The notes under the pieces: generated by a model
Told to the model about the DNA's origin: nothing
Database searches by the model: none
Seen by the model: the letters and a program-made list of their open reading frames with translations, nothing else
Part shown: one piece after another, positions 574-20,520 of the stretch
How positions within the stretch are numbered: the stretch's first letter is position 1
Layout of the letters: each line of letters begins with the position of its first letter
Assembly: GCA_041494705.1 (NCBI GenBank)
Contig: JBGQBI010000002.1
Coordinates: forward strand, 210,001-242,000
Reading direction: 5' to 3'
Source: Candidatus Methanoperedens sp.
GTDB lineage: Archaea; Halobacteriota; Methanosarcinia; Methanosarcinales; Methanoperedenaceae
Length of the DNA stretch: 32,000 bases
Program-made: the position numbers and the translations under genes

Positions 574-1212
574 ATGACTATGGGCATAATAAAAAGGCTG
601 GGGCTGAACTTTAAGTGGATAAAACGGTTATTCAAGAAAAGGAAAGCGAGGATTGGAATATACGGTCCTCCCAATGCGGGGAAGACTACGCTTGCGAACA
701 GGATTGTTAGGGACTGGACCGGCGATGCCATGGGTTCGGTATCCCATATCCCTCATGAAACCCGCAGGGCGAGAAGGCGCGAAGGTGTGACCATCGAATG
801 CAACGGCTCGTCTGTGACTCTGGATATAATTGATACGCCCGGACTTGCCACCAAAATCGATTTCCATGATTTCATGGCTTTTGGCCTGACTGAAGAAGAA
901 TCGAAACGGCGGGCAAAAGAAGCGACTGAAGGTGTGATTGAAGCTGTTAAATGGCTGGATGACCTTGATGGTGTGATACTTGTTATGGATGCGACAGAAG
1001 ACCCATATACGCAGGTGAATGTGACCGTGATAGGCAATATGGAAGCGCGGAAGCTTCCGCTTTTGATAGCAGCCAATAAGATCGACCTTCCCACCTCATC
1101 CCCTGCAAGGATTCACAGCGCGTTCCCGCAGCACCCCCTCGTGCCCATATCCGCTCTTGAAGGGCAGAACATAGATGCACTGTACCAACAAATTGCTGAC
1201 CACTTCGGGTGA
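574..1212 (+). CDS. Small GTP-binding protein (Era/HSR1-like P-loop GTPase) with a basic amphipathic N-terminal extension
   Basis: G1 GPPNAGKT, G3 DTPG, G4 NKID, G5 SAL. The N-terminus is GIIKRLGLNFKWIKRLFKKRKA. The start could be 574 or 580. Confidence 0.8.
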   Translation: MTMGIIKRLGLNFKWIKRLFKKRKARIGIYGPPNAGKTTLANRIVRDWTGDAMGSVSHIPHETRRARRREGVTIECNGSSVTLDIIDTPGLATKIDFHDFMAFGLTEEESKRRAKEATEGVIEAVKWLDDLDGVILVMDATEDPYTQVNVTVIGNMEARKLPLLIAANKIDLPTSSPARIHSAFPQHPLVPISALEGQNIDALYQQIADHFG

Positions 1213-1441: not shown

Positions 1442-1804
1442 ATGATTAAAGGAATTCAAATGGATTTAATATCAGAGGATAAACTCGATTCCATGACCTC
1501 GATGGAAAAGGTGCGGTTAATCCTGGATGAGGTAAGAAACGGGAAAATCCTTATACTTGAGAAAGGGCTCACCCCGAATGAGCAGACAAAACTTATAGAG
1601 CTAACCATGACAGAGATAGCGCCAGACGATTTCTCAGGGATTGAGATCGAGAGTTACCCTGTAAAACATGATAGCAATATACTGGGTAAACTGTTCGGGA
1701 AAACCACTGTGAAGACAAGGCTTACAGTAATAGGTCCTGCAGACCAGCTAAAGACGATAAAAAAGGACAGGGACCTGATAAGCGCCCTTGTTTCAGCACC
1801 ATAG
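1442..1804 (+). CDS. Conserved archaeal protein of unknown function (resembles the family I recall as DUF2073)
   Basis: 120-aa ORF. Its ATG overlaps the stop of the repeat-spanning ORF (ATGA at 1442-1445). An alternative start is 1460 (MDLISEDK). It sits in the GTPase/Zn-ribbon neighbourhood typical of Euryarchaeota. Confidence 0.7.
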   Translation: MIKGIQMDLISEDKLDSMTSMEKVRLILDEVRNGKILILEKGLTPNEQTKLIELTMTEIAPDDFSGIEIESYPVKHDSNILGKLFGKTTVKTRLTVIGPADQLKTIKKDRDLISALVSAP

Positions 1805-1808
1805 TTTT

Positions 1809-2228
1809 ATGCCACATAAATGTACGCGATGCGAGGGTATTTTCAAGGACGGCGCTGCAATAATACTTAACGGCTGCCCGAAATGCGGCTGGAATAAGTT
1901 CCTGTATGTGAAAGACGCAGATGAACCCCATTCCGAAACCAGAATAAAGGAGGCAGTTCCCCCCGCTGCCTCAAGATTTATCAAAGAGGTTGATGAGATT
2001 CTTGGAAACAAGGTAGCGCAGCCCGAATCAAATGAAGTGAAAGCGGAACCGAAACCTGAAATAGGCGAGCGGGTAGAATCCGTGAGAATAGTATCCCCCG
2101 GTTCATATGAATTAAATCTAGAATCGCTCTTGGAAAGAGATGAAATCGTAATGGCGCTTAAAGAAGACGGGACATACATTGTCCATTTGCCCTCGGTCTT
2201 CCAGAAAAAGAAACATCATGAGCGGTAA
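1809..2228 (+). CDS. Zn-ribbon protein of unknown function (resembles archaeal DUF2072 family)
   Basis: MPHKCTRCEG...NGCPKCGW gives a CxxC...CxxC ribbon at the N-terminus. The ATG at 1809 lies 4 nt after the upstream stop (1802-1804). The track ORF extends to 1788, but that stretch overlaps the upstream gene. Confidence 0.75.
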   Translation: MPHKCTRCEGIFKDGAAIILNGCPKCGWNKFLYVKDADEPHSETRIKEAVPPAASRFIKEVDEILGNKVAQPESNEVKAEPKPEIGERVESVRIVSPGSYELNLESLLERDEIVMALKEDGTYIVHLPSVFQKKKHHER

Positions 2229-2656
2229 AATGTGTCGGGTGTTGAATTAAGATTGGAGTATTCCTTTGCGCGGGGCGAGTCTGGGGTGGAAACGAAGATG
2301 GAATTTATACTGGCTCCAAGCTTGCGTGAATCGTGCAAATAAAATCCCTTTTCAGGCCGCGAGATATTTTTCACGTTGAGAATTGTTTCGTCCTGGTTCA
2401 TTTTCACAATATCATAATCAAAATTCGAGAAGAGTTCTCTTATTTTAGGTTCAATGCTTTTACTTCCGAATAGAAGAATATACATTTTTGGAATTTTACC
2501 AAGGTCATAATTCACTATGAATGTGGCATTGGTTTTATCAAAATTAATTGTGAGTGAAGTAATTTCAAAAGTATGATTTGCAGACGTCCCTTCTGAGATT
2601 GGAAGTATTGATGCGAAAACCAATACAATGAAAATTACCATGATTGATTTTTTCAT
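2216..2656 (-). CDS. Hypothetical secreted protein with an N-terminal signal/anchor
   Basis: MKKSIMVIFIVLVFASILPISEG signal-like N-terminus and several N-x-S/T sequons. No recognisable family. Its 3' end overlaps the convergent Zn-ribbon gene by 13 nt. Confidence 0.55.
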   Translation of the reverse strand: MKKSIMVIFIVLVFASILPISEGTSANHTFEITSLTINFDKTNATFIVNYDLGKIPKMYILLFGSKSIEPKIRELFSNFDYDIVKMNQDETILNVKNISRPEKGFYLHDSRKLGASINSIFVSTPDSPRAKEYSNLNSTPDTFYRS

Positions 2657-2895
2657 CTTGGAATTACCATGTACTCTTCGAATATATCTTTTTGCATCGT
2701 TTTGTTAACTGCCGCTTTTCTGCAAAAACCAGATTTGGTAATGTTTCTTTGCCCATTCCGAATTTACTTTTCCATTAATAATACCTTGCAGTGACTCAAT
2801 ATTATTTTCCATATTTTTTTGAAGACCGTATTTTATTCATCCAGCATACCCTAAAAAGAAAGTTATTTGATATATTAAATCATTACTTGGGTATC

Positions 2896-3081
2896 ATGGA
2901 AAAAAATAGTCCTTTTTTTACAGCTTCTATGGCAACAATTTTGTATTTTATCATTCTCGTCATGCTAAAATATTTCCTGCAACATAAAACCGTGGATTGG
3001 CAGGACGTACTGGTTGCAATAGGTTTCTGGATTGTTATTTTTCTTGTACATCAATTCCTTAATAGACGTTACGGAAGTTAG
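2896..3081 (+). CDS. Hypothetical small membrane protein (2 predicted TM helices)
   Basis: ATG at 2896 (MEKNSPFF...). Hydrophobic segments ILYFIILVML and VAIGFWIVIFLV. AT-rich context. The track ORF begins at a GTG at 2791. Confidence 0.3.
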   Translation: MEKNSPFFTASMATILYFIILVMLKYFLQHKTVDWQDVLVAIGFWIVIFLVHQFLNRRYGS

Positions 3082-3096
3082 TTTTATATTTTTATA

Positions 3097-3240
3097 TCAC
3101 AATGCTTTTTTTAAAAATAAATACACGATATAAGCGATTATCAAAACTGCTAAGAGCCATAAAAGCTTGAATACTATCCCTATTAAAATAAATGCAATAA
3201 CCAGAGCAATTATCGCAATCATAATATCTGTAAGTTTCAT
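3097..3240 (-). CDS. Hypothetical small membrane protein
   Basis: ATG at 3240 (MKLTDIMIAIIALVIAFILIGIVFKLLWLLAVLIIAYIVYLF). The track ORF starts at a TTG at 3282. No known family. Confidence 0.3.
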   Translation of the reverse strand: MKLTDIMIAIIALVIAFILIGIVFKLLWLLAVLIIAYIVYLFLKKAL

Positions 3241-3349
3241 AGTTAAAGATTTCTTTTTGGTACTTAAATCTTTATCCTGCAAAAAATCAATGAATGAATA
3301 GCATGCGCATAGGAATCATCCATCAAAATTCCGCCGCGTAACATTAAAC

Positions 3350-3928
3350 TTAGCCTTTAAATTGTTTCAGTTTTAAAAAATTCTCCACAATCCTCAACCC
3401 TTCCGGCGTGAGCACTGACTCGGGATGGAACTGCAAGCCGAATATCGGTCTCTTCCTGTGCTTCACTCCCATAATTATGCCATCTTTCGTCTTAGCCGTA
3501 ATCTCAAGCTCTTGCGGCAGCCTTGTTATGGCAAGGGAATGGTACCGTCCTCCCACCACAGGGTTGGGCAGGCCCTGATAAATGCCGTCGCCGTTGTGGT
3601 ATATCTGCGAAGTTTTCCCGTGGAGGGGTCCTGATGGCGAGTGGCTCACCTCGCCGCCGAAAGCAACCGCTATCGCCTGATGACCGAGGCACACGCCAAG
3701 CAGGGGAACACTCGATTCCCTGATAATCTCAAGGCAGGTTCCAATATCCTTCGGGTTTGCCGGATGCCCCGGACCGGGCGATATCACAATTGCATCAGGA
3801 TTGATTTCCTTAACTTCCCTGAGTGAAATGGTATTTGGAACAACAATTGTATCAGGCTCGAATATCGAAACGTAATCCACAAGGTTCCAGACAAAAGAGT
3901 CCTTATTGTTAACGAATAAGACCTTCAT
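3350..3928 (-). CDS. trpG: Anthranilate synthase component II (glutamine amidotransferase)
   Basis: Class-I GATase triad context GVCLGHQAI ... FHPES. ATGA overlap with the trpE stop (3925-3928). Confidence 0.9.
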   Translation of the reverse strand: MKVLFVNNKDSFVWNLVDYVSIFEPDTIVVPNTISLREVKEINPDAIVISPGPGHPANPKDIGTCLEIIRESSVPLLGVCLGHQAIAVAFGGEVSHSPSGPLHGKTSQIYHNGDGIYQGLPNPVVGGRYHSLAITRLPQELEITAKTKDGIIMGVKHRKRPIFGLQFHPESVLTPEGLRIVENFLKLKQFKG

Positions 3929-8215: not shown

Positions 8216-8584
8216 ATGGCACAAACATATATCAAATTTGAAGTTCCCGCCGAGTTATCCAATAAAGCATTAGAAGCTCTGGAGATGGCACGGGATACAG
8301 GAAAGATTAAGAAAGGAACAAACGAAGCCACAAAAGCAATCGAGCGTGGAATTGCAAAACTTGTAATAATCGGCGAAGACGTGAACCCGCCTGAAATTGT
8401 AATGCATCTGCCCGCACTTTGCGAGGAAAAGAATACACCATACATCTATGTCAAAAAACAGGTAGAACTCGGCGCAGCTGCCGGATTGAGCGTGGGCAGC
8501 GGAGCGGCGGCGATAGTTGAACCTGGAAAAGGCAAAGAGCTGGTTGATGAAGTGGCGCAGAAAGTCCAGGCCCTGAAGAAGTGA
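8216..8584 (+). CDS. rpl7ae: Ribosomal protein L7Ae (K-turn binding)
   Basis: [48 protein letters not shown] is the hallmark L7Ae/L30e core. Confidence 0.95.
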
Positions 8585-9000: not shown

Positions 9001-9012
9001 AAGGTGGGAACC

Positions 9013-9465
9013 GTGGAACGCACTTACGTGATGGTTAAACCCGACGGCGTACAGCGGGGGCTGGTCGGGGAGGTCATAAGCCGGATAGAGCGGCGGGGGC
9101 TTAAAATAGTGGCCATGCGCATGAATACGATTTCCACGGACATTGCCAAAAAACATTATGCTGAACATGCCCAAAAACCTTTTTTTAATTCCCTGATCAG
9201 TTTTATTACATCAGGGCCCTCGGTTTCAATGGTGGTTGAAGGCAAGAATTCGGTTTCTGTAATGCGCGCCATAAATGGGGCTACCAACCCTGTAAATGCT
9301 GCTACGGGTTCTATAAGAGGGGATCTTGCTCTTGATACTGGGCGCAATATCGTCCATGCCAGCGACTCACCGGATTCGGCAAAAATGGAAATAAGCATCC
9401 ATTTCAAGGATTCAGAGATAGCAGGATATTCCAGAGTTGACGAAGCCTGGATATACGAAAATTAA
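9013..9465 (+). CDS. ndk: Nucleoside diphosphate kinase
   Basis: (M)[38 protein letters not shown] at 9013 gives the canonical NDK N-terminus and is preceded by AGGTGG (9002-9007). The track ORF starts at a GTG at 9004. Confidence 0.92.
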
Positions 9466-9506
9466 AGGCATATTTTCAAGTGAATTCTATTGTTGAAGGT
9501 GAGAAA

Positions 9507-9995
9507 TTGAGCGCAAAAATCTGGTTTGTAATTCTGGGAATTGCGATATTGATCATAAGCGGATGTGTGCAATCGCCGGAAAAAAAAGAGCCGGTAAGCA
9601 CGAATATATCCAACGCTACTCCTGTTCCCACAATAGAAATAACGACGCCAAAGGTAACACAACCAATACCCAAAGAATTGCCGCCTAATACAATCTTTGT
9701 CTCGGCGCGGATGCTGAAACCCGTTGACTGGGGCAACGGGAAATTAGAACTCGTATCAATGAAAATCCAAATCTATAACCAGCGAAATACCCCGCTCTCC
9801 ATAAAAGCACAAATAATAAACGATAACATGGTTCTTGAAGAAAAATCTTTTGTTCTTGCGGGGGAGGGCAGCAATACCGGGTTTACAAATGAAAACAGAC
9901 ATTTTATAAATAGTACTAATATAAAACTACGACTGCTGGTTCAGGATTATAAGCCAATTGAATACGATGTTGTGGAGGCTGGAAGTATCAGTTAA
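9507..9995 (+). CDS. Hypothetical lipoprotein or secreted protein
   Basis: A TTG at 9507, preceded by GGTGA (9499-9503), gives (M)SAKIWFVILGIAILIISGC, a lipobox-like signal. The track ORF starts at a GTG at 9480. No recognisable family. Confidence 0.5.
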   Translation: MSAKIWFVILGIAILIISGCVQSPEKKEPVSTNISNATPVPTIEITTPKVTQPIPKELPPNTIFVSARMLKPVDWGNGKLELVSMKIQIYNQRNTPLSIKAQIINDNMVLEEKSFVLAGEGSNTGFTNENRHFINSTNIKLRLLVQDYKPIEYDVVEAGSIS

Positions 9996-10068: not shown

Positions 10069-11832
10069 ATGGAAAATAATCTGCGCACTCCTATCGTGTG
10101 TGTGATGGGGCATGTCGACCACGGCAAAACTTCGCTGCTTGACAGGATAAGGGGCACCACTATTGCAGAGAGGGAAGCGGGTCTCATAACGCAGCATATA
10201 GGTGCGACAGAAGTGCCGCTTGAGATTATAAAACGCGTATGCGGGCCGGTTTTTAAGGGAGATACAAAAGTCCCGGGGCTGCTCTTTATCGATACTCCGG
10301 GGCACAGGGCATTTACAACGCTTCGGGCAAGAGGCGGCGCGCTTGCTGACCTTGCTATACTGGTTGTTGATGTTAATGAAGGATTCCAGCCCCAGACAAT
10401 AGAAGCAGTCGAGATACTTAAAAGATTCAAGACACCGTTTGTGGTAGCGGCGACCAAGATAGACAAAGTTACAGGCTGGAACCCGCAATCCGGGCAGCCG
10501 TTCATAATCTCATATCCCGAACAGCCGGAACATACAAAGGTCGCACTTGATGAAAAAATATATGTAATAATCGGCAAACTCTATGAAATGGGTTTCAGCT
10601 CTGACAGGTACGACCGTGTGCGGGATTTCCAGCGCAATATTGGCGTGGTACCGATTAGCGCAAAGACCGGGGAAGGCATACCCGACCTCCTCATGATATT
10701 AATGGGGCTGGCGCAAAAGTTCCTTGAAAAAGACCTTGAATACAGGGCAGTCGGTCCGGGCACGGGAACAGTCCTTGAAGTAAAGGAAGAAGTGGGTCTT
10801 GGAACTACGCTTGATGTGATATTATATGACGGCGAGCTAAACGTGGGCGATACCATAGTCGTGGGTAGCAGGGGAGAGCCGATTGCCACGAAAATCCGCG
10901 CCCTCTTGAAACCGCGCCCGCTTTCCGAGATTCGCGCAGAAGAGAAATTCAAGCAGGTAAAGAAAGTGGTCGCAGCGTCGGGTGTTAAAATCGCGGCGCC
11001 CCAGCTTGAAGGAGCGCTTGCCGGCTCGCAGGTCCGCGCCGTTTTTGGCAATATCGAGGAAGTGGCGGCTGCGATAAAATCCGAGATAGACGCGGTGAGG
11101 ATAGAAACCGAATCAAACGGGATTCTTATCAAGGCTGATACGATAGGTTCTCTTGAAGCTCTTGTGAACGAACTGAAAAAGGAGAACATACCGATACGCA
11201 AGGCTGATATCGGCGATGTTTCAAAACGCGATGTTGCGGAAGTAAAAACAATAAAAGACCCGCTATTCTCGGCAATCCTGGGTTTTGAAGTGGATGTCCT
11301 GCCTGATGCCAGGGAAGAACTCATGGGTTCTGACATCAAGCTGTTCGTCAACAATGTCATCTACCGGCTTATCGAGGATTACAAGAAATGGGTGGTCGAA
11401 CAAAAACAGGTCATGGAGAAAAAGCGCTATGAGACTATTATAAAGCCCGGGAGGTTCAAGATATTGCCCGATTGCACGTTCAGGCAGAGCAAGCCCGCCG
11501 TAGTGGGTGTGCGAGTGCTTGGCGGAGTTATTAAGACAAATCTTGAATTGATGAAGGACAACGGCGTGATTGTGGGGACAATAAAAGGAATCCAGGAAAA
11601 TAGCGAGAATATAGGCGAGGCTGGCGCGGGCAAGGAGGTTGCTGTGGCTATCGATGGACCCACAGTCGGGCGGCAGATAAAAGAGGGGGATACGCTTTAC
11701 ATAGATGTGCCCGAAAAACATGCGAAAATCGCTGAACAGGAGCTTTTTGAGGCTATGAAAATCGAGGATAAGGAAACGCTCATGGCATTTATGGAGATAA
11801 AGCGCAGGGGAAATCCTTTCTGGGGAAAATAA
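10069..11832 (+). CDS. infB: Translation initiation factor aIF5B (IF2 homologue)
   Basis: PIVCVMGHVDHGKTSLLDRIRGT, FIDTPGH, ATKIDK. The 587-aa length is typical of intein-free aIF5B. Confidence 0.95.
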   Translation: MENNLRTPIVCVMGHVDHGKTSLLDRIRGTTIAEREAGLITQHIGATEVPLEIIKRVCGPVFKGDTKVPGLLFIDTPGHRAFTTLRARGGALADLAILVVDVNEGFQPQTIEAVEILKRFKTPFVVAATKIDKVTGWNPQSGQPFIISYPEQPEHTKVALDEKIYVIIGKLYEMGFSSDRYDRVRDFQRNIGVVPISAKTGEGIPDLLMILMGLAQKFLEKDLEYRAVGPGTGTVLEVKEEVGLGTTLDVILYDGELNVGDTIVVGSRGEPIATKIRALLKPRPLSEIRAEEKFKQVKKVVAASGVKIAAPQLEGALAGSQVRAVFGNIEEVAAAIKSEIDAVRIETESNGILIKADTIGSLEALVNELKKENIPIRKADIGDVSKRDVAEVKTIKDPLFSAILGFEVDVLPDAREELMGSDIKLFVNNVIYRLIEDYKKWVVEQKQVMEKKRYETIIKPGRFKILPDCTFRQSKPAVVGVRVLGGVIKTNLELMKDNGVIVGTIKGIQENSENIGEAGAGKEVAVAIDGPTVGRQIKEGDTLYIDVPEKHAKIAEQELFEAMKIEDKETLMAFMEIKRRGNPFWGK

Positions 11833-16904: not shown

Positions 16905-16972
16905 GGTTAATCCAGTTTATTAATTGCAAGCTAGTTATAACTTTTTGACAGGTAATTTAGTTAGGTTAGTAT

Positions 16973-16983
16973 TTATATATATC
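16973..16983 (+). promoter_or_regulatory. Candidate TATA box for the KaiC-like/GTPase/Roadblock operon
   Basis: TTATATATATA lies 33-43 nt upstream of the ATG at 17016, in a 111-nt divergent intergenic region. Confidence 0.3.
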
Positions 16984-17015: not shown

Positions 17016-17720
17016 ATGAGTGATTATTCCATCGGCATCAAGGAACTGGACGACGCCATCGGCGGCATAAAAAAAGGTTCGAATATAATGTTAATCGGGC
17101 CTCCTATGAGTGGAAAGGAGTCTATCCTGAAACTCATCGCTTACCATGGCGCCGTGGATAATGAAAATGCAATTATTATAGTTACAACACGTGAATCCGC
17201 GACTAATATCCTGGAATGGTTCAAGGAGAACAAGCTGGCTCTGCCGTTATCAAAAATAGCCATAGTGGATTGCGTCACAAAAACACTGGGCGGTGCCGCT
17301 CTGGAAAATGAGAACATTAAAATTGCAAGCAGCCCTGTCGACCTGACTGGAATAGGGGTTAAAATCAGCCAGTTTTTCGAGGATTTCTTCATGAAAAAGA
17401 ATAACCGGAAAATCCAGCTTCATATCAATTCCCTGTCTACAATATTGATGTATTCCAATATCCAGACGGTTTTCAGGTTCCTTCATGTATTTACAGGACG
17501 AATCAAAGCTGCCGGAGCCCTTGGGATATATGTAATTGAAAGCGGCATGCATGATGAACAGGCTATCGCAACCTTAAAACAGCTTTTCGATGGTATGATA
17601 GAAATTAAAATTGAAAATGATAAGAATTTTTTAAGGGTGACCGGTCTTTCTTCAAAACCTACGCCATGGTTTGAATATGAGCTTGAGGGAGCAAATTTAA
17701 AGATATCGGGGGGAAAATAA
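17016..17720 (+). CDS. KaiC/RecA-superfamily protein with non-canonical Walker motifs
   Basis: GIKELDDAIGGIKKGSNIMLIGPPMSGKES has a KaiC/RadA-type N-terminus. Walker A is GPPMSGKE (Glu in place of Ser/Thr). The Walker B-equivalent strand is IQLHINSLS (Asn in place of Asp). Confidence 0.8.
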   Translation: MSDYSIGIKELDDAIGGIKKGSNIMLIGPPMSGKESILKLIAYHGAVDNENAIIIVTTRESATNILEWFKENKLALPLSKIAIVDCVTKTLGGAALENENIKIASSPVDLTGIGVKISQFFEDFFMKKNNRKIQLHINSLSTILMYSNIQTVFRFLHVFTGRIKAAGALGIYVIESGMHDEQAIATLKQLFDGMIEIKIENDKNFLRVTGLSSKPTPWFEYELEGANLKISGGK

Positions 17721-18890
17721 ATGGTAGAAACCGGCATCCCCAGGCTTGACGAAATCCTTGGCGGCGGTATACCGAAAGGCAAAAGTCTTGTTTATTATAG
17801 CCAGCCAGGTGTGGAAGGCGAAGTTTTCGGGATGCAGACTGTTTATAATACCCTGAAATCCGGTGGGAACTGCGTTTTTGTAGTTTCAAGCACCATTCCT
17901 GACATCATGAGGGGACTTTTCAAGGAATATGGCTGGGACATTGATGAGTACAGGGACAGGTTATGTCTGGTAGATGCGTATAATCCGCTGATTGGCGCTC
18001 CTTCAGACGAAAAATACATAGTCACCAATCCTGATAGCATCGAGAGTTTCAATAAAATAATCATAGACTTAATAAAAGAATTGCCTCCAAGCACCATAGT
18101 ATTCGGGTCACTGTCAACAATCATGGATTTATGCGGCGAGAAGGAAACTATAGAAGCTGTCAGGAACTGGAATAAAATGGCTATGGTCTATGACCATGTT
18201 ATTGTTTATAATTTTACGGTATGGCCATATTCAAATCAAACTTTGCATTTAATAAAAGAAGAATTATTCAATGCCGTTATTTCAATCGGGAGCATAGCCG
18301 AGCGTGTCATTTTTGGCCAGTATTTCGGGATACTCAAATCAGACTGGGCAAAAGAAACCAAAACATCCATGCTTTTCAGGGTATTGCGACCCGGGGGAAT
18401 AAAGTTATTCATACCGAAGATTCTCGTAACCGGGCCTTTTGATGCCGGAAAGTCGACGTTCGTGCATGCGCTTTCAACGCGGGCGATATCTGTTGACAGG
18501 CTCGGGACAACAATTGCCCTCGACCATGGCCACGTCGATTATAAGGGTTTTAGCGCTGATATTTTCGGAACGCCAGGCCAGGAACGGTTTGACCCCATTA
18601 TCAAGCTATTGAGCGGTGAATCGATGGGTGTCTTCCTCGTAGTGGATTCTACAAATCCTGCGGATTTTGTTCGCGCAAAATACATGCTTGAGATTACAAC
18701 ATCTTACGGGCTGCCATATGTTATTGTTGCAAACAAACAGGATATGCCGGGCGCACTCACACCTGAAGAAATAAGGGGGCAATTTAACCTGCCCGACGAT
18801 GTTCCTGTTGTTCCCGCTGTTGCGAAGGATAAGGTCGGTGTGTTTGAGGCATTTGAAGTGCTGATAAATAATATTACCGGGGGAAAATAA
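17721..18890 (+). CDS. Fusion protein: degenerate KaiC/RecA-like domain (about aa 1-230) plus MglA-like small GTPase domain (about aa 233-389)
   Basis: N-terminal GIPRLDEILGGGIPKGKSLVYYSQPGVEGEV has no P-loop Lys, and the Walker B position reads TIVFGSLS. C-terminal domain: G1 GPFDAGKS, G2 LGTT, G3 FGTPGQ, G4 NKQD, G5-like VAK. Confidence 0.8.
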   Translation: MVETGIPRLDEILGGGIPKGKSLVYYSQPGVEGEVFGMQTVYNTLKSGGNCVFVVSSTIPDIMRGLFKEYGWDIDEYRDRLCLVDAYNPLIGAPSDEKYIVTNPDSIESFNKIIIDLIKELPPSTIVFGSLSTIMDLCGEKETIEAVRNWNKMAMVYDHVIVYNFTVWPYSNQTLHLIKEELFNAVISIGSIAERVIFGQYFGILKSDWAKETKTSMLFRVLRPGGIKLFIPKILVTGPFDAGKSTFVHALSTRAISVDRLGTTIALDHGHVDYKGFSADIFGTPGQERFDPIIKLLSGESMGVFLVVDSTNPADFVRAKYMLEITTSYGLPYVIVANKQDMPGALTPEEIRGQFNLPDDVPVVPAVAKDKVGVFEAFEVLINNITGGK

Positions 18891-19258
18891 TGGTTGATAC
18901 CATTGATATGGTGGATAAATTACTGGCCGATTTAAAGAACATCGGAGGAGTGGAAGCCAGTATTGCTGCAAGCCGTGACGGGTTGCTTATACGCGCCAAT
19001 ATGCCAAAAGAAAAATTTTTGGCATCTCTTGCCGCCATGTCTGCCACCATGCTCGGAGCTGCCGAGACTGCGACTACACAAGTGGAAAAGGGCTTACCCA
19101 CTAGGGTTATTGTGGAATCTGAATATGGGAGATTGATAATTGTCGGCGCAGGACCCAAAGCGCTTTTGATTATTCTTGCAAATTCGAATTCTTCATTGGG
19201 TTTAATCCTGATCGAACTTGATAAATCAGCCAAAATGCTGAAAGAGTTATTAAAATGA
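18890..19258 (+). CDS. Roadblock/LC7 (MglB-like) domain protein
   Basis: GVEASIAASRDGLLI...SLAAMSATMLGAAE...VIVESEYGRLIIV pattern. The ATG overlaps the upstream TAA (TAATG). Confidence 0.85.
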   Translation: MVDTIDMVDKLLADLKNIGGVEASIAASRDGLLIRANMPKEKFLASLAAMSATMLGAAETATTQVEKGLPTRVIVESEYGRLIIVGAGPKALLIILANSNSSLGLILIELDKSAKMLKELLK

Positions 19259-19509
19259 ATAAACAAAAAAATAAGGCAGAAGCAACGCTTCTTGAACCCA
19301 CGCTCCATGTCGGCAAATCCGGTATAGAGCCCGTGGTCGGGGAGCTTCGAACCCAGTTAAAAAACAGGACTATGGTAAAAGTAAAATTCCTCAAGACCGC
19401 TTTTATCGAAACCGGAAAAAAAGAAATATCAGAAAAACTCGCAGAACTTACAGATTCGGAACTTATTGAAATCAGGGGTAATACAGCAGTTTTTCGCCGA
19501 AAAAGGTAA
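19255..19509 (+). CDS. CRM-domain (YhbY/CRS1 family) RNA-binding protein
   Basis: LEPTLHVGKSGIEPVVGELRTQLKNRTMVKVKFL matches the YhbY GxxG/KVK pattern. ATGA overlap with the Roadblock gene. Confidence 0.8.
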   Translation: MNKQKNKAEATLLEPTLHVGKSGIEPVVGELRTQLKNRTMVKVKFLKTAFIETGKKEISEKLAELTDSELIEIRGNTAVFRRKR

Positions 19510-19625: not shown

Positions 19626-20075
19626 TTGACAACAGTATATGACGTGCCCGCAGAAATGCTCATAAATAATGTGGCACAGAAATTGAAAACTGATGAGAAA
19701 GCAAAGCCCCCTGAGTGGGCAAGTTATGCAAAGACCGGTGCTCATAAAGAGCTTTCGCCTGATAATGCCGACTGGTGGTTTGTGAGATGCGCTTCGATAT
19801 TGAGACGCGTCTATATAGACGGGCCTGTCGGGATTTCACGCCTTAGGAGTTTCTATGGCGGGCGGCACAGGAATGGAGTAAGACCCACACACTTTTCAAA
19901 GGGAAGCGGCTCCATTGCAAGAGAAGCGCTGCAGCAGCTTGAGAAAGCCGGATTTGTTAAAGCCCAGAAAACCGGCAGGATGATTTCACCGCATGGACAG
20001 TCGTTTTTGGATAATGCGGCAAACGAAGTAAAAATCGAACTCATCAAATCCAATCCTGCACTTGCTAAATATTAG
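19626..20075 (+). CDS. rps19e: Ribosomal protein S19e
   Basis: VYDVPAEMLINNVAQKLK...PPEWASYAKTGAHKELSP...WWFVRCASILRRVY. TTG start, preceded by GGAGGA (19614-19619). Confidence 0.93.
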   Translation: MTTVYDVPAEMLINNVAQKLKTDEKAKPPEWASYAKTGAHKELSPDNADWWFVRCASILRRVYIDGPVGISRLRSFYGGRHRNGVRPTHFSKGSGSIAREALQQLEKAGFVKAQKTGRMISPHGQSFLDNAANEVKIELIKSNPALAKY

Positions 20076-20144: not shown

Positions 20145-20175
20145 TATAAAGAGACTAAAAGGGGAACAGGGATTG

Positions 20176-20520
20176 ATGAATATGGACGAAGATCTCGAAG
20201 AGATAAAAAGGCGCAAGCTTGAGCAGTTACAGCAGCAGCAATACAGCGCCCAGGGGCAGGCAGCCCAGCAGGAACAGGCCCGCGCCGAGTATGAATCAAA
20301 GAAGGCGGCAATCATGCGCCAGATACTCACGCCTGAAGCAAGGGAGAGGCTAAATACCCTCAAGATGACAAAACCCGAGCTTGTGGCGAGTGTTGAGGCG
20401 CAGTTGGTTACTCTTGCGCAGAGTGGAAGGCTTGCCACAAAGATAGACGATGCAAAGCTAAAGGCATTGCTGCTCCAGTTGCAGCCCAAGAAGCATGAGA
20501 TGCAGATTAGAAGGATGTAA
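20176..20520 (+). CDS. PDCD5/TFAR19-like double-stranded DNA-binding protein
   Basis: [37 protein letters not shown] is the conserved core. It is the usual archaeal neighbour of rps19e. The start could be 20173 (TTG), 20176 or 20182. Confidence 0.85.

Follow-up and report, generated by a model that had tools for sequence, protein, structure and literature searches.

A conserved archaeal gene module that joins a KaiC-like protein, a KaiC-GTPase fusion and a Roadblock protein: a candidate G-protein switch in Candidatus Methanoperedens

What might be the role of four genes that follow each other without a gap on the forward strand of a Candidatus Methanoperedens genome (anaerobic methanotrophic archaea, ANME-2d)? 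The genes, here called A to D, lie in a stretch of 32,000 nucleotides (contig JBGQBI010000002.1, positions 210,001 to 242,000), which we refer to as the window and whose first letter is position 1. Gene A encodes a stand-alone KaiC-like protein, gene B a KaiC-like domain fused to a small GTPase, gene C a Roadblock/LC7 protein and gene D a YhbY/CRM RNA-binding protein. An initial annotation, made from the sequence, had proposed that a probably catalytically dead KaiC-like scaffold is tethered to a GTPase switch and its Roadblock partner, with a possible link to ribosome assembly or translation. Our analysis shows that A, B and C are linked in many archaeal lineages, and we consider it fairly probable that they form a three-component G-protein switch of the MglA/MglB type on a KaiC-like platform. 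Gene D appears to be an addition in one lineage.

Both the fusion in B and its linkage to A and C are conserved beyond this genome. A search for the B family among 1.84 billion cluster representatives (clusters at 50% identity) returned 122 clusters at E < 1e-30, and about 75-100 of these are full-length fusions of 370-415 aa, down to about 27% identity. Proteins with 81-96% identity to B are labelled Methanoperedens in public records. Scanning genomes with a 14-sequence alignment, one genome per species, gave at least 79 loci with full-length matches in more than 10 archaeal lineages (loci are cited by their L numbers). These lineages are Methanoperedens, ANME-2a/b/c, Methanosarcinaceae, Methanocellales including cultured Methanocella, Archaeoglobaceae, Alkanophaga, Hydrothermarchaeales, Thermoplasmata, Methanobacteriaceae, Altiarchaeota, the DPANN groups Woese-, Micr-, Parv- and Nanoarchaeota, and Bathyarchaeota. 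When the open reading frames of the scanned loci were searched with the window proteins, a Roadblock gene adjoined B in 74 of 81 cases, an A-type gene in 67 and both in 62. Within these 62 complete trios from other genomes, the gap between A and B was at most 10 nt in 54 and that between B and C in 59. One locus (L008, JAIWAT010000091.1) comes from a genome binned as 'Anaerolineales bacterium' and has A-B-C-D arranged as in the Methanosarcinales contig L007. The B proteins of both contigs are 67% identical to the B protein of the window, and L008 is probably a mis-binned archaeal contig.

The trio occurs in two gene orders, A-B-C (type I) in 36 loci and C-B-A (type II) in 26, where a second A paralogue is often present. 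Type II is found at L036-L074 (e.g., L042:5621-8626 and L053:2248-4504), where the stand-alone KaiC-like partner has a canonical Walker A motif, GPPKTGKS, and a canonical Walker B motif of the form hhhhD. Since both types are present in one ANME-2 metagenome-assembled genome (MAG; L011 and L068), they represent paralogous systems with their own cognate partner sets. The three proteins also diverge together, as the pairwise identities are correlated between A and B (Pearson r 0.92), B and C (0.91) and A and C (0.86), and A follows the KaiC-like domain of B (r 0.918) more closely than the GTPase domain (0.847). In two tar-biofilm MAGs named 'Halobacteriota archaeon' (L024:2470-8637 and L027:1647-7532), two fusion genes and 3-4 tandem Roadblock genes are found within about 6 kb, and the module seems to have been duplicated locally.

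The C-terminal domain of B was initially described as a GTPase with motifs G1 to G5, and this is correct, with G3 reading GTPGQ and not DxxGQ. Residues 232-385 match the TIGR00231 small_GTP family (1.7e-13), Arf (4.5e-11) and also Ras, within a range of 1e-9 to 2e-13 (Pfam and NCBIfam), and the matches among solved structures in the PDB are Arl/Arf (3e-8) and MglA (4e-7). In single-sequence phmmer searches, Arf/Arl proteins score slightly above MglA. The motifs are G1 GPFDAGKS (238-245), G2 Thr264, G3 FGTPGQ (282-287), G4 NKQD (338-341) and G5 VAK. Across 82 B orthologues (38-96% identity), the Gly and Lys of G1 (GPxxAGK[ST]) and the Asn and Lys of G4 (NKxD) are found in all 82, and Thr264 of G2 in 81. 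In the G3 pattern FGTPGQxRF, the residues F, G, G, Q, R and F are present in 82/82, and the GTPGQ residues are retained in 75-82 of the sequences. Such near-invariance of G1, G3 and G4 indicates purifying selection on the GTPase.

The G3 motif also places this domain in a family. Gly283 of B aligns with the Asp that is universal in G3 of Arf/Arl proteins, and the MglA family is defined by the loss of this Asp and by coupling to mglB, where Groups 2-5 have GTPGQ in G3 and Thr in G2 while Group 1 has TVPGQ (PMC4316618). Judged by these motifs, the GTPase domain of B belongs to the MglA family and has the GTPGQ signature of Groups 2-5, and the missing Asp is read as a hallmark of the family and not as decay. 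B has G1 to G5, a G3 without Asp, Thr in G2 and a Roadblock gene within four genes. However, at 389 aa and with a KaiC-like domain, it exceeds the single-domain size of about 150-240 aa of the MglA family. The census of Wuichet and Sogaard-Andersen (2014) was limited to proteins of up to 240 aa, and for the archaeal Group 4 mglA genes it listed no conserved gene neighbours (PMC4316618).

The N-terminal domain of B has retained the fold of a KaiC-like ATPase and lost its active site. Residues 2-143 match Pfam KaiC (6e-18), and in a gap-free alignment with PH0284, the P-loop GGPGTGKT corresponds to SQPGVEGE, so that Lys is replaced by Gly33 and Thr by Glu34. Further, the catalytic Glu-Glu pair falls on Ser57-Thr58 and the Walker B Asp on Gly129. 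This confirms the loss of the P-loop Lys and the Walker B Asp that had been read from the motifs QPGVEGEV (aa 28-35) and VFGS (aa 127-130). The P-loop Lys is missing in 82/82 orthologues, and the Walker B position often retains D, E or N in the wider family and is Gly in this clade. The KaiC-like domain of B is thus, from its sequence, catalytically dead throughout the family, without canonical nucleotide binding or hydrolysis. The motif found in place of the P-loop, P-G-V-E-x-[E/D]-x-F-G, is in turn conserved across the B orthologues, and an acidic pseudo-P-loop that is maintained in this way suggests selection for a new role and not drift.

Structural models are consistent with this. The N-terminal domain of B superimposes on PH0284 (2dr3) with TMt 0.85 and a root-mean-square deviation of 2.3 Å (Foldseek), and the AlphaFold2 model of the whole protein has a mean confidence (pLDDT) of 94.5 and a predicted TM-score (pTM) of 0.89. 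A conserved P-G-G hinge runs directly into strand 1 of the GTPase. The high pTM and the absence of a linker indicate a fixed arrangement of the two domains, and B is predicted to be a rigid two-domain protein in which the GTPase is built onto the dead KaiC-like domain. The physical tethering of GTPase and KaiC-like domain that had been proposed for this genome is therefore a real and widely conserved fusion.

Protein A is a paralogue of the N-terminal domain of B, as first suggested, since the two families align with an hhalign probability of 99.9% (E 3e-32) over the first 230 columns of the B-family alignment. A matches the Pfam families DUF7504 (2.8e-25), DUF7090 (4e-13) and KaiC (5.9e-9, above the gathering cutoff), and its AlphaFold2 model (pLDDT 91.8, pTM 0.90) is closest to PH0284 (2dr3; TM 0.82), a hexameric single-domain archaeal ATPase. 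The next matches, for A as well as for the KaiC-like domain of B, are Sso2452, the CI domain of KaiC and FlaH. This agrees with the KaiC-like fold assigned to A from its sequence. Both A and the B domain thus have the RecA/KaiC-like fold, and in neither were a canonical Walker A motif, the Glu pair or hhhhD found. They are not clock KaiC proteins, as A has one KaiC-like domain and the second domain of B is a Ras-like GTPase, and NCBIfam KaiC families give scores of 21-30 against cutoffs of 408-546.

The active site of A differs from that of B. The motifs GPPMSGKE and LHINS (aa 135-139) are both present as described, and in the alignment with KaiC, GTPGTGKT corresponds to GPPMSGKE, with Lys34 retained and Thr replaced by Glu35. 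One Glu of the catalytic pair is kept (Arg59-Glu60), and the Walker B Asp is replaced by Asn138. Among 88 A-family proteins taken from the retrieved loci, the P-loop Lys is found in 83. Canonical GK[ST] together with hhhhD is seen in 39, GK[ED] with the Walker B Asp in 16, and GK[ED] with Asn in 21, all of the latter in Methanosarcinales, ANME and Methanoperedens. In these sequences the GK[ED]+hhhhN state is therefore limited to that clade. We considered whether Glu/Asp for Ser in Walker A and Asn for Asp in Walker B represent a compensatory swap, and rejected this because all cases of GK[ED] with Asn are from one clade, i.e., a single event with no evidence of covariation. The P-loop Lys kept across the family and the canonical motifs in other lineages suggest that A-family proteins bind nucleotide. 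The A protein of Methanoperedens is probably impaired in hydrolysis and may retain nucleotide binding. The description of A as degenerate therefore holds for its altered Walker motifs in this clade and not for the family as a whole, and that of a catalytically dead scaffold holds for the B domain.

Protein C was assigned to the Roadblock/LC7 family, which is supported by a Pfam match to Robl_LC7 (6.8e-13, 48.6 bits against a cutoff of 23) and by PDB matches to solved Roadblock proteins, namely the Asgard protein 7f8m (7.6e-17), 9jue (2e-15), 7yh1, and CvnB5 (3leq, 2e-6). MglB partners of GTPGQ-type MglA proteins have a conserved Asp-Gly pair (PMC4316618), and C has this pair in the motif Arg29-Asp30-Gly31, with Asp or Glu in 82 and Gly in 83 of 83 orthologues. 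On these grounds C is classified as the cognate Roadblock protein of B, of MglB/CvnB type.

Collectively, these features are best accommodated by the three-component switch introduced above. A dimer of C would bind the GTPase face of B and set its GTP/GDP state in the role of GAP (GTPase-activating protein) and/or GEF (guanine nucleotide exchange factor), like MglB. Proteins of the RecA/KaiC fold assemble side by side. A and the KaiC-like domain of B could pack in the same manner, possibly in a mixed ring like that of hexameric PH0284, and the only P-loops with a phosphate-binding Lys in such a ring would be those of A. We infer this hetero-oligomer from the likeness of the models to a hexamer, the tight gene linkage and the co-divergence. 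The nucleotide state of A, or the binding of an upstream partner to the platform, would then be linked with the GTPase switch, in one direction or the other. The analogous MglA/MglB, conservon and KaiC-like hub systems make signalling or spatial regulation, and not metabolism, the most likely output.

Several observations weigh against this reading. The co-divergence is confounded by shared phylogeny and is thus suggestive. In MglB partners of GTPGQ-type GTPases, no conserved catalytic residue has been identified (PMC4316618), and a GAP role of C therefore rests on analogy. With Glu35 and Asn138, A might in this clade have lost the binding of Mg-nucleotide altogether. Within the window, neither an effector nor an input domain was identifiable. 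Finally, a 527-aa protein (P0128) that combines a KaiC-like domain, a small GTPase and a Roadblock/LC7 domain (Pfam) in one chain would speak for the switch, but it was given little weight, as it was seen once, on a contig of 1.8 kb, and a frameshift at the overlapping stop and start codons could yield it. On the other hand, three outcomes that were named beforehand as speaking against the reading, i.e., canonical Walker residues elsewhere in A or B, a non-GTPase domain at the C-terminus of B and no conservation outside this genome, were not found.

A more specific form of the mechanism is possible, and we hold it to be doubtful. Here, only A would sense adenine nucleotide in the mixed ring, through its non-canonical GK[ED]/hhhhN pocket, while the dead sites of B with their acidic pseudo-P-loop would relay this state to GTPases displayed in six-fold symmetry, which the Roadblock dimer would reset. 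If true, this would be a previously unrecognised archaeal signalling machine, found in more than 10 lineages, that combines a pseudo-ATPase ring with a G-protein switch. With the V4R partners seen in some lineages, it would represent a prokaryotic counterpart of Ragulator-Rag and TRAPP-Rab.

The neighbours of the module outside this genome suggest the direction of its output. A V4R protein (Pfam V4R 1.3e-11) is encoded directly 3' of the Roadblock gene in Archaeoglobaceae-type modules (L030:7510-8112), and a V4R neighbour is also found in L024, L031, L032, L034 and L036. The closest stand-alone GTPase, 49% identical to the GTPase domain of B, lies in an operon with the order ParA/MinD-like ATPase, V4R, Roadblock and GTPase (L083:2060-4573, also L084 and L085). 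V4R domains share the fold of TRAPPC3/Bet3, and TRAPP is a GEF for Rab. As judged from gene neighbourhoods, the module may recurrently include a V4R protein as fourth component. In Methanobacteriaceae (L042, L045, L048-L062; e.g., L049:4185-5138, L051:3840-4328 and L058:4748-5404), the module is flanked by a conserved TPR protein. It is also accompanied by small proteins that begin with a hydrophobic helix and match no Pfam family, and these might be pilin-like or membrane partners. The recurrence of V4R, ParA/MinD, TPR and small membrane neighbours argues for signalling or spatial regulation.

Some of these neighbours also bear on a more specific output of the same mechanism, namely that the module controls surface machinery, motility or polarity through type IV pili (T4P) or archaella. 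This would parallel the KaiC-like ArlH/FlaH and MglA/MglB of Myxococcus. MglA/MglB are regulators of T4P-dependent motility and polarity, and KaiC-family ATPases and Roadblock proteins of arCOG02603 are reported as frequent in archaeal T4P loci (PMC4858521). The A protein has weak matches to FlaH/ArlH, and FlaH (4yds) is also among the matches of its model. The type II modules of Methanobacteriaceae adjoin genes for small proteins that have a hydrophobic helix at the N-terminus, and the closest stand-alone GTPase shares its operon with a ParA/MinD-type ATPase. However, pilin, archaellin, ATPase/TadC and chemotaxis genes were found neither in the window nor in most loci, the matches to FlaH fall far short of the family cutoffs (29 against 194 bits), and the Methanobacteriaceae neighbours are candidate pilin-like proteins at most, as they have no Pfam match. 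We therefore regard control of surface machinery as rather unlikely.

The ribosome link proposed in the initial annotation depends on gene D and the adjacent rps19e gene. D is a CRM/YhbY RNA-binding protein as described, with a match to Pfam CRS1_YhbY of 1.3e-15 (57.9 bits against a cutoff of 27), while the score for the bacterial equivalog TIGR00253, 51.3, does not reach the cutoff of 78.5. If the module were a regulator of ribosome assembly or translation, the GTPase switch would work together with D and S19e. Several features of this lineage are in line with such a role. D overlaps C by ATGA, which leaves no space for a promoter of its own, and D is predicted to be co-transcribed with A to C here. 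C and D are adjacent in 21 of 22 Methanosarcinales, ANME-2 and Methanoperedens loci, down to about 61% identity in B, and genes for S19e and a PDCD5-like protein follow in 9-10 loci. In the Thermoplasmatota locus L036, S19e and PDCD5 genes are found within 2.5 kb on the opposite strand, and the window itself is rich in translation genes.

Across the range of the module, however, this association does not hold. The 21 of 79 loci in which D lies 3' of C belong to L001-L022, one order-level clade of Methanosarcinales, ANME-2 and Methanoperedens, and D is missing from the module in the other 57 loci, which represent all other lineages. Even within the clade, the C-D overlap is seen in Methanoperedens and ANME-2c, while a gap of 25-110 nt separates the genes in L007-L014. 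Outside the clade, YhbY adjoins Rpr2 (RNase P subunit Rpp21), which is encoded immediately 5' of it (L080:3601-4246, L081 and L082:3682-4246). No KaiC-like, GTPase or Roadblock genes were found near YhbY in the haloarchaeon and the other archaeal lineage examined. This hints at Rpr2-YhbY as a conserved pair in other archaea. Moreover, A, B and C contain no other ribosome-biogenesis domain, and the additional genes that recur beside the module in other lineages encode V4R, TPR and small membrane proteins and have no part in translation. From the gene neighbourhoods we conclude that D is a housekeeping gene that was captured into the operon in one lineage and that belongs functionally with the adjacent translation genes. 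A ribosome or translation link is thus not a property of the module. That the module regulates ribosome assembly or translation we find unlikely. A functional link to ribosome assembly is conceivable for this lineage.

Two further explanations carry almost no weight. The proteins are publicly named 'hypothetical', 'GTP-binding protein', 'recombinase RecA' and 'RAD55 family ATPase', and the last two names, weak NCBIfam RadA/RadB and PHROG UvsX-like matches and the RecA-superfamily fold would fit RadA/Rad55-type recombination mediators with an accessory GTPase, but this is highly improbable given RadA/RadB scores of 13-17 bits against cutoffs of 172-403 (RadA 17.4 against 403, RadB 17.0 against 278), the absence of the N-terminal DNA-binding domain, the loss of ATPase residues essential for strand exchange, best structural matches to KaiC-like proteins rather than RadA/Rad51, and a GTPase and a Roadblock protein as obligate partners. 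Equally improbable is an anti-phage defence or mobile-element NTPase system, for which one could cite the many defence systems that combine degenerate P-loop NTPases and a weak PADLOC match to mad8 (2.8e-5), since the PADLOC matches are confined to the P-loop segment, the PHROG matches are to a family of unknown function and weakly to generic RecA-type families, the surroundings of the module are syntenic and of housekeeping character, its inheritance appears vertical and its parts co-diverge, and no integrase, transposase or nuclease is found nearby.

The three-component switch has relatives among known systems, with which it shares parts of its design. In MglA-MglB of Myxococcus xanthus and Thermus thermophilus, a small GTPase without the G3 Asp is likewise encoded beside a Roadblock regulator. 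The module differs in having GTPGQ instead of TVPGQ and in having a Thr in G2, where Group 1 MglA has its intrinsic Arg finger (PMC4316618). Because of this Thr, the catalytic mechanism of the B GTPase probably differs from that of Group 1 MglA. Also, the module lacks the bacterial insertion between G1 and G2, its GTPase carries a KaiC-like domain in the same chain, and a second KaiC-like protein is present. Archaeal Group 4 MglA proteins likewise have the GTPGQ motif and are encoded together with Roadblock proteins, while the KaiC-fused form and the A partner fall outside that census (PMC4316618). Stand-alone relatives are 41-49% identical to the GTPase domain of B, with GTPase-Roadblock pairs at L087/L088. 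The actinobacterial conservons (CvnA-D) are also multi-component MglA-type G-protein systems (PMC4316618), and their biochemistry is only now emerging (PMC13343842). However, they are bacterial, have a membrane histidine-kinase-like sensor as partner and no fusion, and their CvnC (DUF742) has no counterpart here.

For the platform, A and the B domain share their fold with PH0284, Sso2452 and ArlH/FlaH (TM 0.82-0.85 to PH0284). Inactivated KaiC domains ('iKaiC') fused to REC and HalOD1 signalling domains have been documented (PMC5847659), and a role as hubs of archaeal signalling has been put forward for KaiC-like proteins (Makarova 2017, cited after PMC5847659). The module differs in that the fusion partner is a GTPase, the B domain lacks the P-loop Lys and, in the window, every other canonical catalytic residue, and A has an unusual GK[ED] Walker A. 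In eukaryotes, Ragulator-Rag and TRAPP likewise hold and regulate a small GTPase on a Roadblock-fold platform, and V4R proteins, with their TRAPPC3-like fold, adjoin the module in some lineages (PMC10933270). Since the eukaryotic platforms have no KaiC-like component, this is an analogy of design, with homology limited to the Roadblock and GTPase folds.

Each ingredient, i.e., Roadblock-GTPase operons, inactivated KaiC-like domains and conservons, is thus known, and the combination was not found described. Koonin and Aravind reportedly noted Roadblock-GTPase operons in 2000. Makarova is said to have catalogued many KaiC-linked domains in 2017, and the architecture of the module may be listed there without study. 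The initial annotation held that this architecture had not been studied experimentally. In agreement with this, we found no description or experimental study of a KaiC-GTPase fusion module in the searchable literature, which did not cover Makarova 2017, and no experimental study of any archaeal MglA-type GTPase in the literature searched.

The coordinates of the module and of other features in the window are listed in Table 1.

Table 1. Positions in the window of the module genes, their domains and junctions, and neighbouring features
Feature	Position	Strand	Description
Gene A	17016-17720	+	Stand-alone KaiC-like (DUF7504) protein, 234 aa
Variant Walker A of A, GPPMSGKE	17097..17120	+	aa 28-35
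Gene B	17721-18890	+	KaiC-like domain and MglA-family GTPase, 389 aa
B N-terminal inactivated KaiC-like domain	17721..18395	+	aa 1-225
B C-terminal MglA-family small GTPase domain	18396..18890	+	aa 226-389
Gene C	18890-19258	+	Roadblock/LC7 protein, MglB/CvnB type, 122 aa
Gene D	19255-19509	+	YhbY/CRM RNA-binding protein, 84 aa
TATA-like AT-rich box TATTTATATATAT	16970..16982	+	Putative promoter element, 34-46 nt 5' of the ATG of A, read from sequence
A/B junction, GGGGGAAAATAA then ATG	17709..17723	+	G-rich, Shine-Dalgarno-like, within the last Gly-Gly-Lys codons of A
B/C junction, same 12-mer GGGGGAAAATAA	18879..18892	+	Overlaps the ATG of C by one base
rps19e	19626-20075		
PDCD5-like DNA-binding protein gene	20173-20520		
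L7Ae	8216-8584		Translation cluster, 5 kb upstream of the module
NDK	9004-9465		Same upstream cluster
171-aa open reading frame	9480-9995		No Pfam match
aIF5B/IF-2	10069-11832		Same upstream cluster
GTPase	574-1212		
OapB	1442-1804		Origin-associated protein, 9.6e-47
OapC	1788-2228		Origin-associated protein, 1.7e-47

The gene junctions agree with what was described at first, and the list of open reading frames and the sequence confirm four genes without gaps. The TAA of A (17718-17720) directly abuts the ATG of B, the TAA of B (18888-18890) and the ATG of C (18890-18892) share one base in TAATG, and the ATG of D (19255-19257) overlaps the TGA of C (19256-19258) in ATGA. Overlaps of stop and start codons are frequent in archaeal operons. 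The junctions by themselves are ordinary, and their conservation across genomes exceeds chance. The box TATTTATATATAT is a putative archaeal promoter of the operon. The 12-mer GGGGGAAAATAA occurs at 17709-17720 and 18879-18890, where A and B both end in Gly-Gly-Lys, and is followed by the starts ATGGTA and ATGGTT, respectively. These two exact copies in the window compare with 0.01 expected by chance. In the relatives L001 and L003, a G-rich Shine-Dalgarno-like stretch is retained at the junctions, but the exact 12-mer is not. A spacer of 116 nt separates D from rps19e, and the PDCD5-like gene follows.

The window is a housekeeping region rich in translation genes, including L7Ae, NDK, aIF5B, S19e, cysS and valS. 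There are short open reading frames between 8584 and 9004, and scans of the window with Rfam and for tRNA gave no matches. Near its start, a GTPase gene is followed by OapB and OapC, annotated as 'origin-associated proteins' (574-2228), which suggests that a replication origin may lie nearby. A search of 2150-3450 for a repeat family resembling origin recognition boxes found none.

For the biology of these organisms, one consequence concerns annotation, as the current names of the proteins would mislead reconstructions of metabolism and DNA repair in Methanoperedens and ANME genomes. Small GTPases, Roadblock proteins and KaiC-like proteins are numerous in archaea, and the module joins all three families in one linked set. 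For inactivated KaiC domains, which are widespread, a role has so far been proposed from comparative genomics only. With three soluble proteins and confident models for A and B, the module is a compact system in which the activation of GTPGQ-type MglA proteins and the role of a dead KaiC-like domain can be tested. It could also be used to ask whether the regulation of platform-bound GTPases pre-dates eukaryotes.

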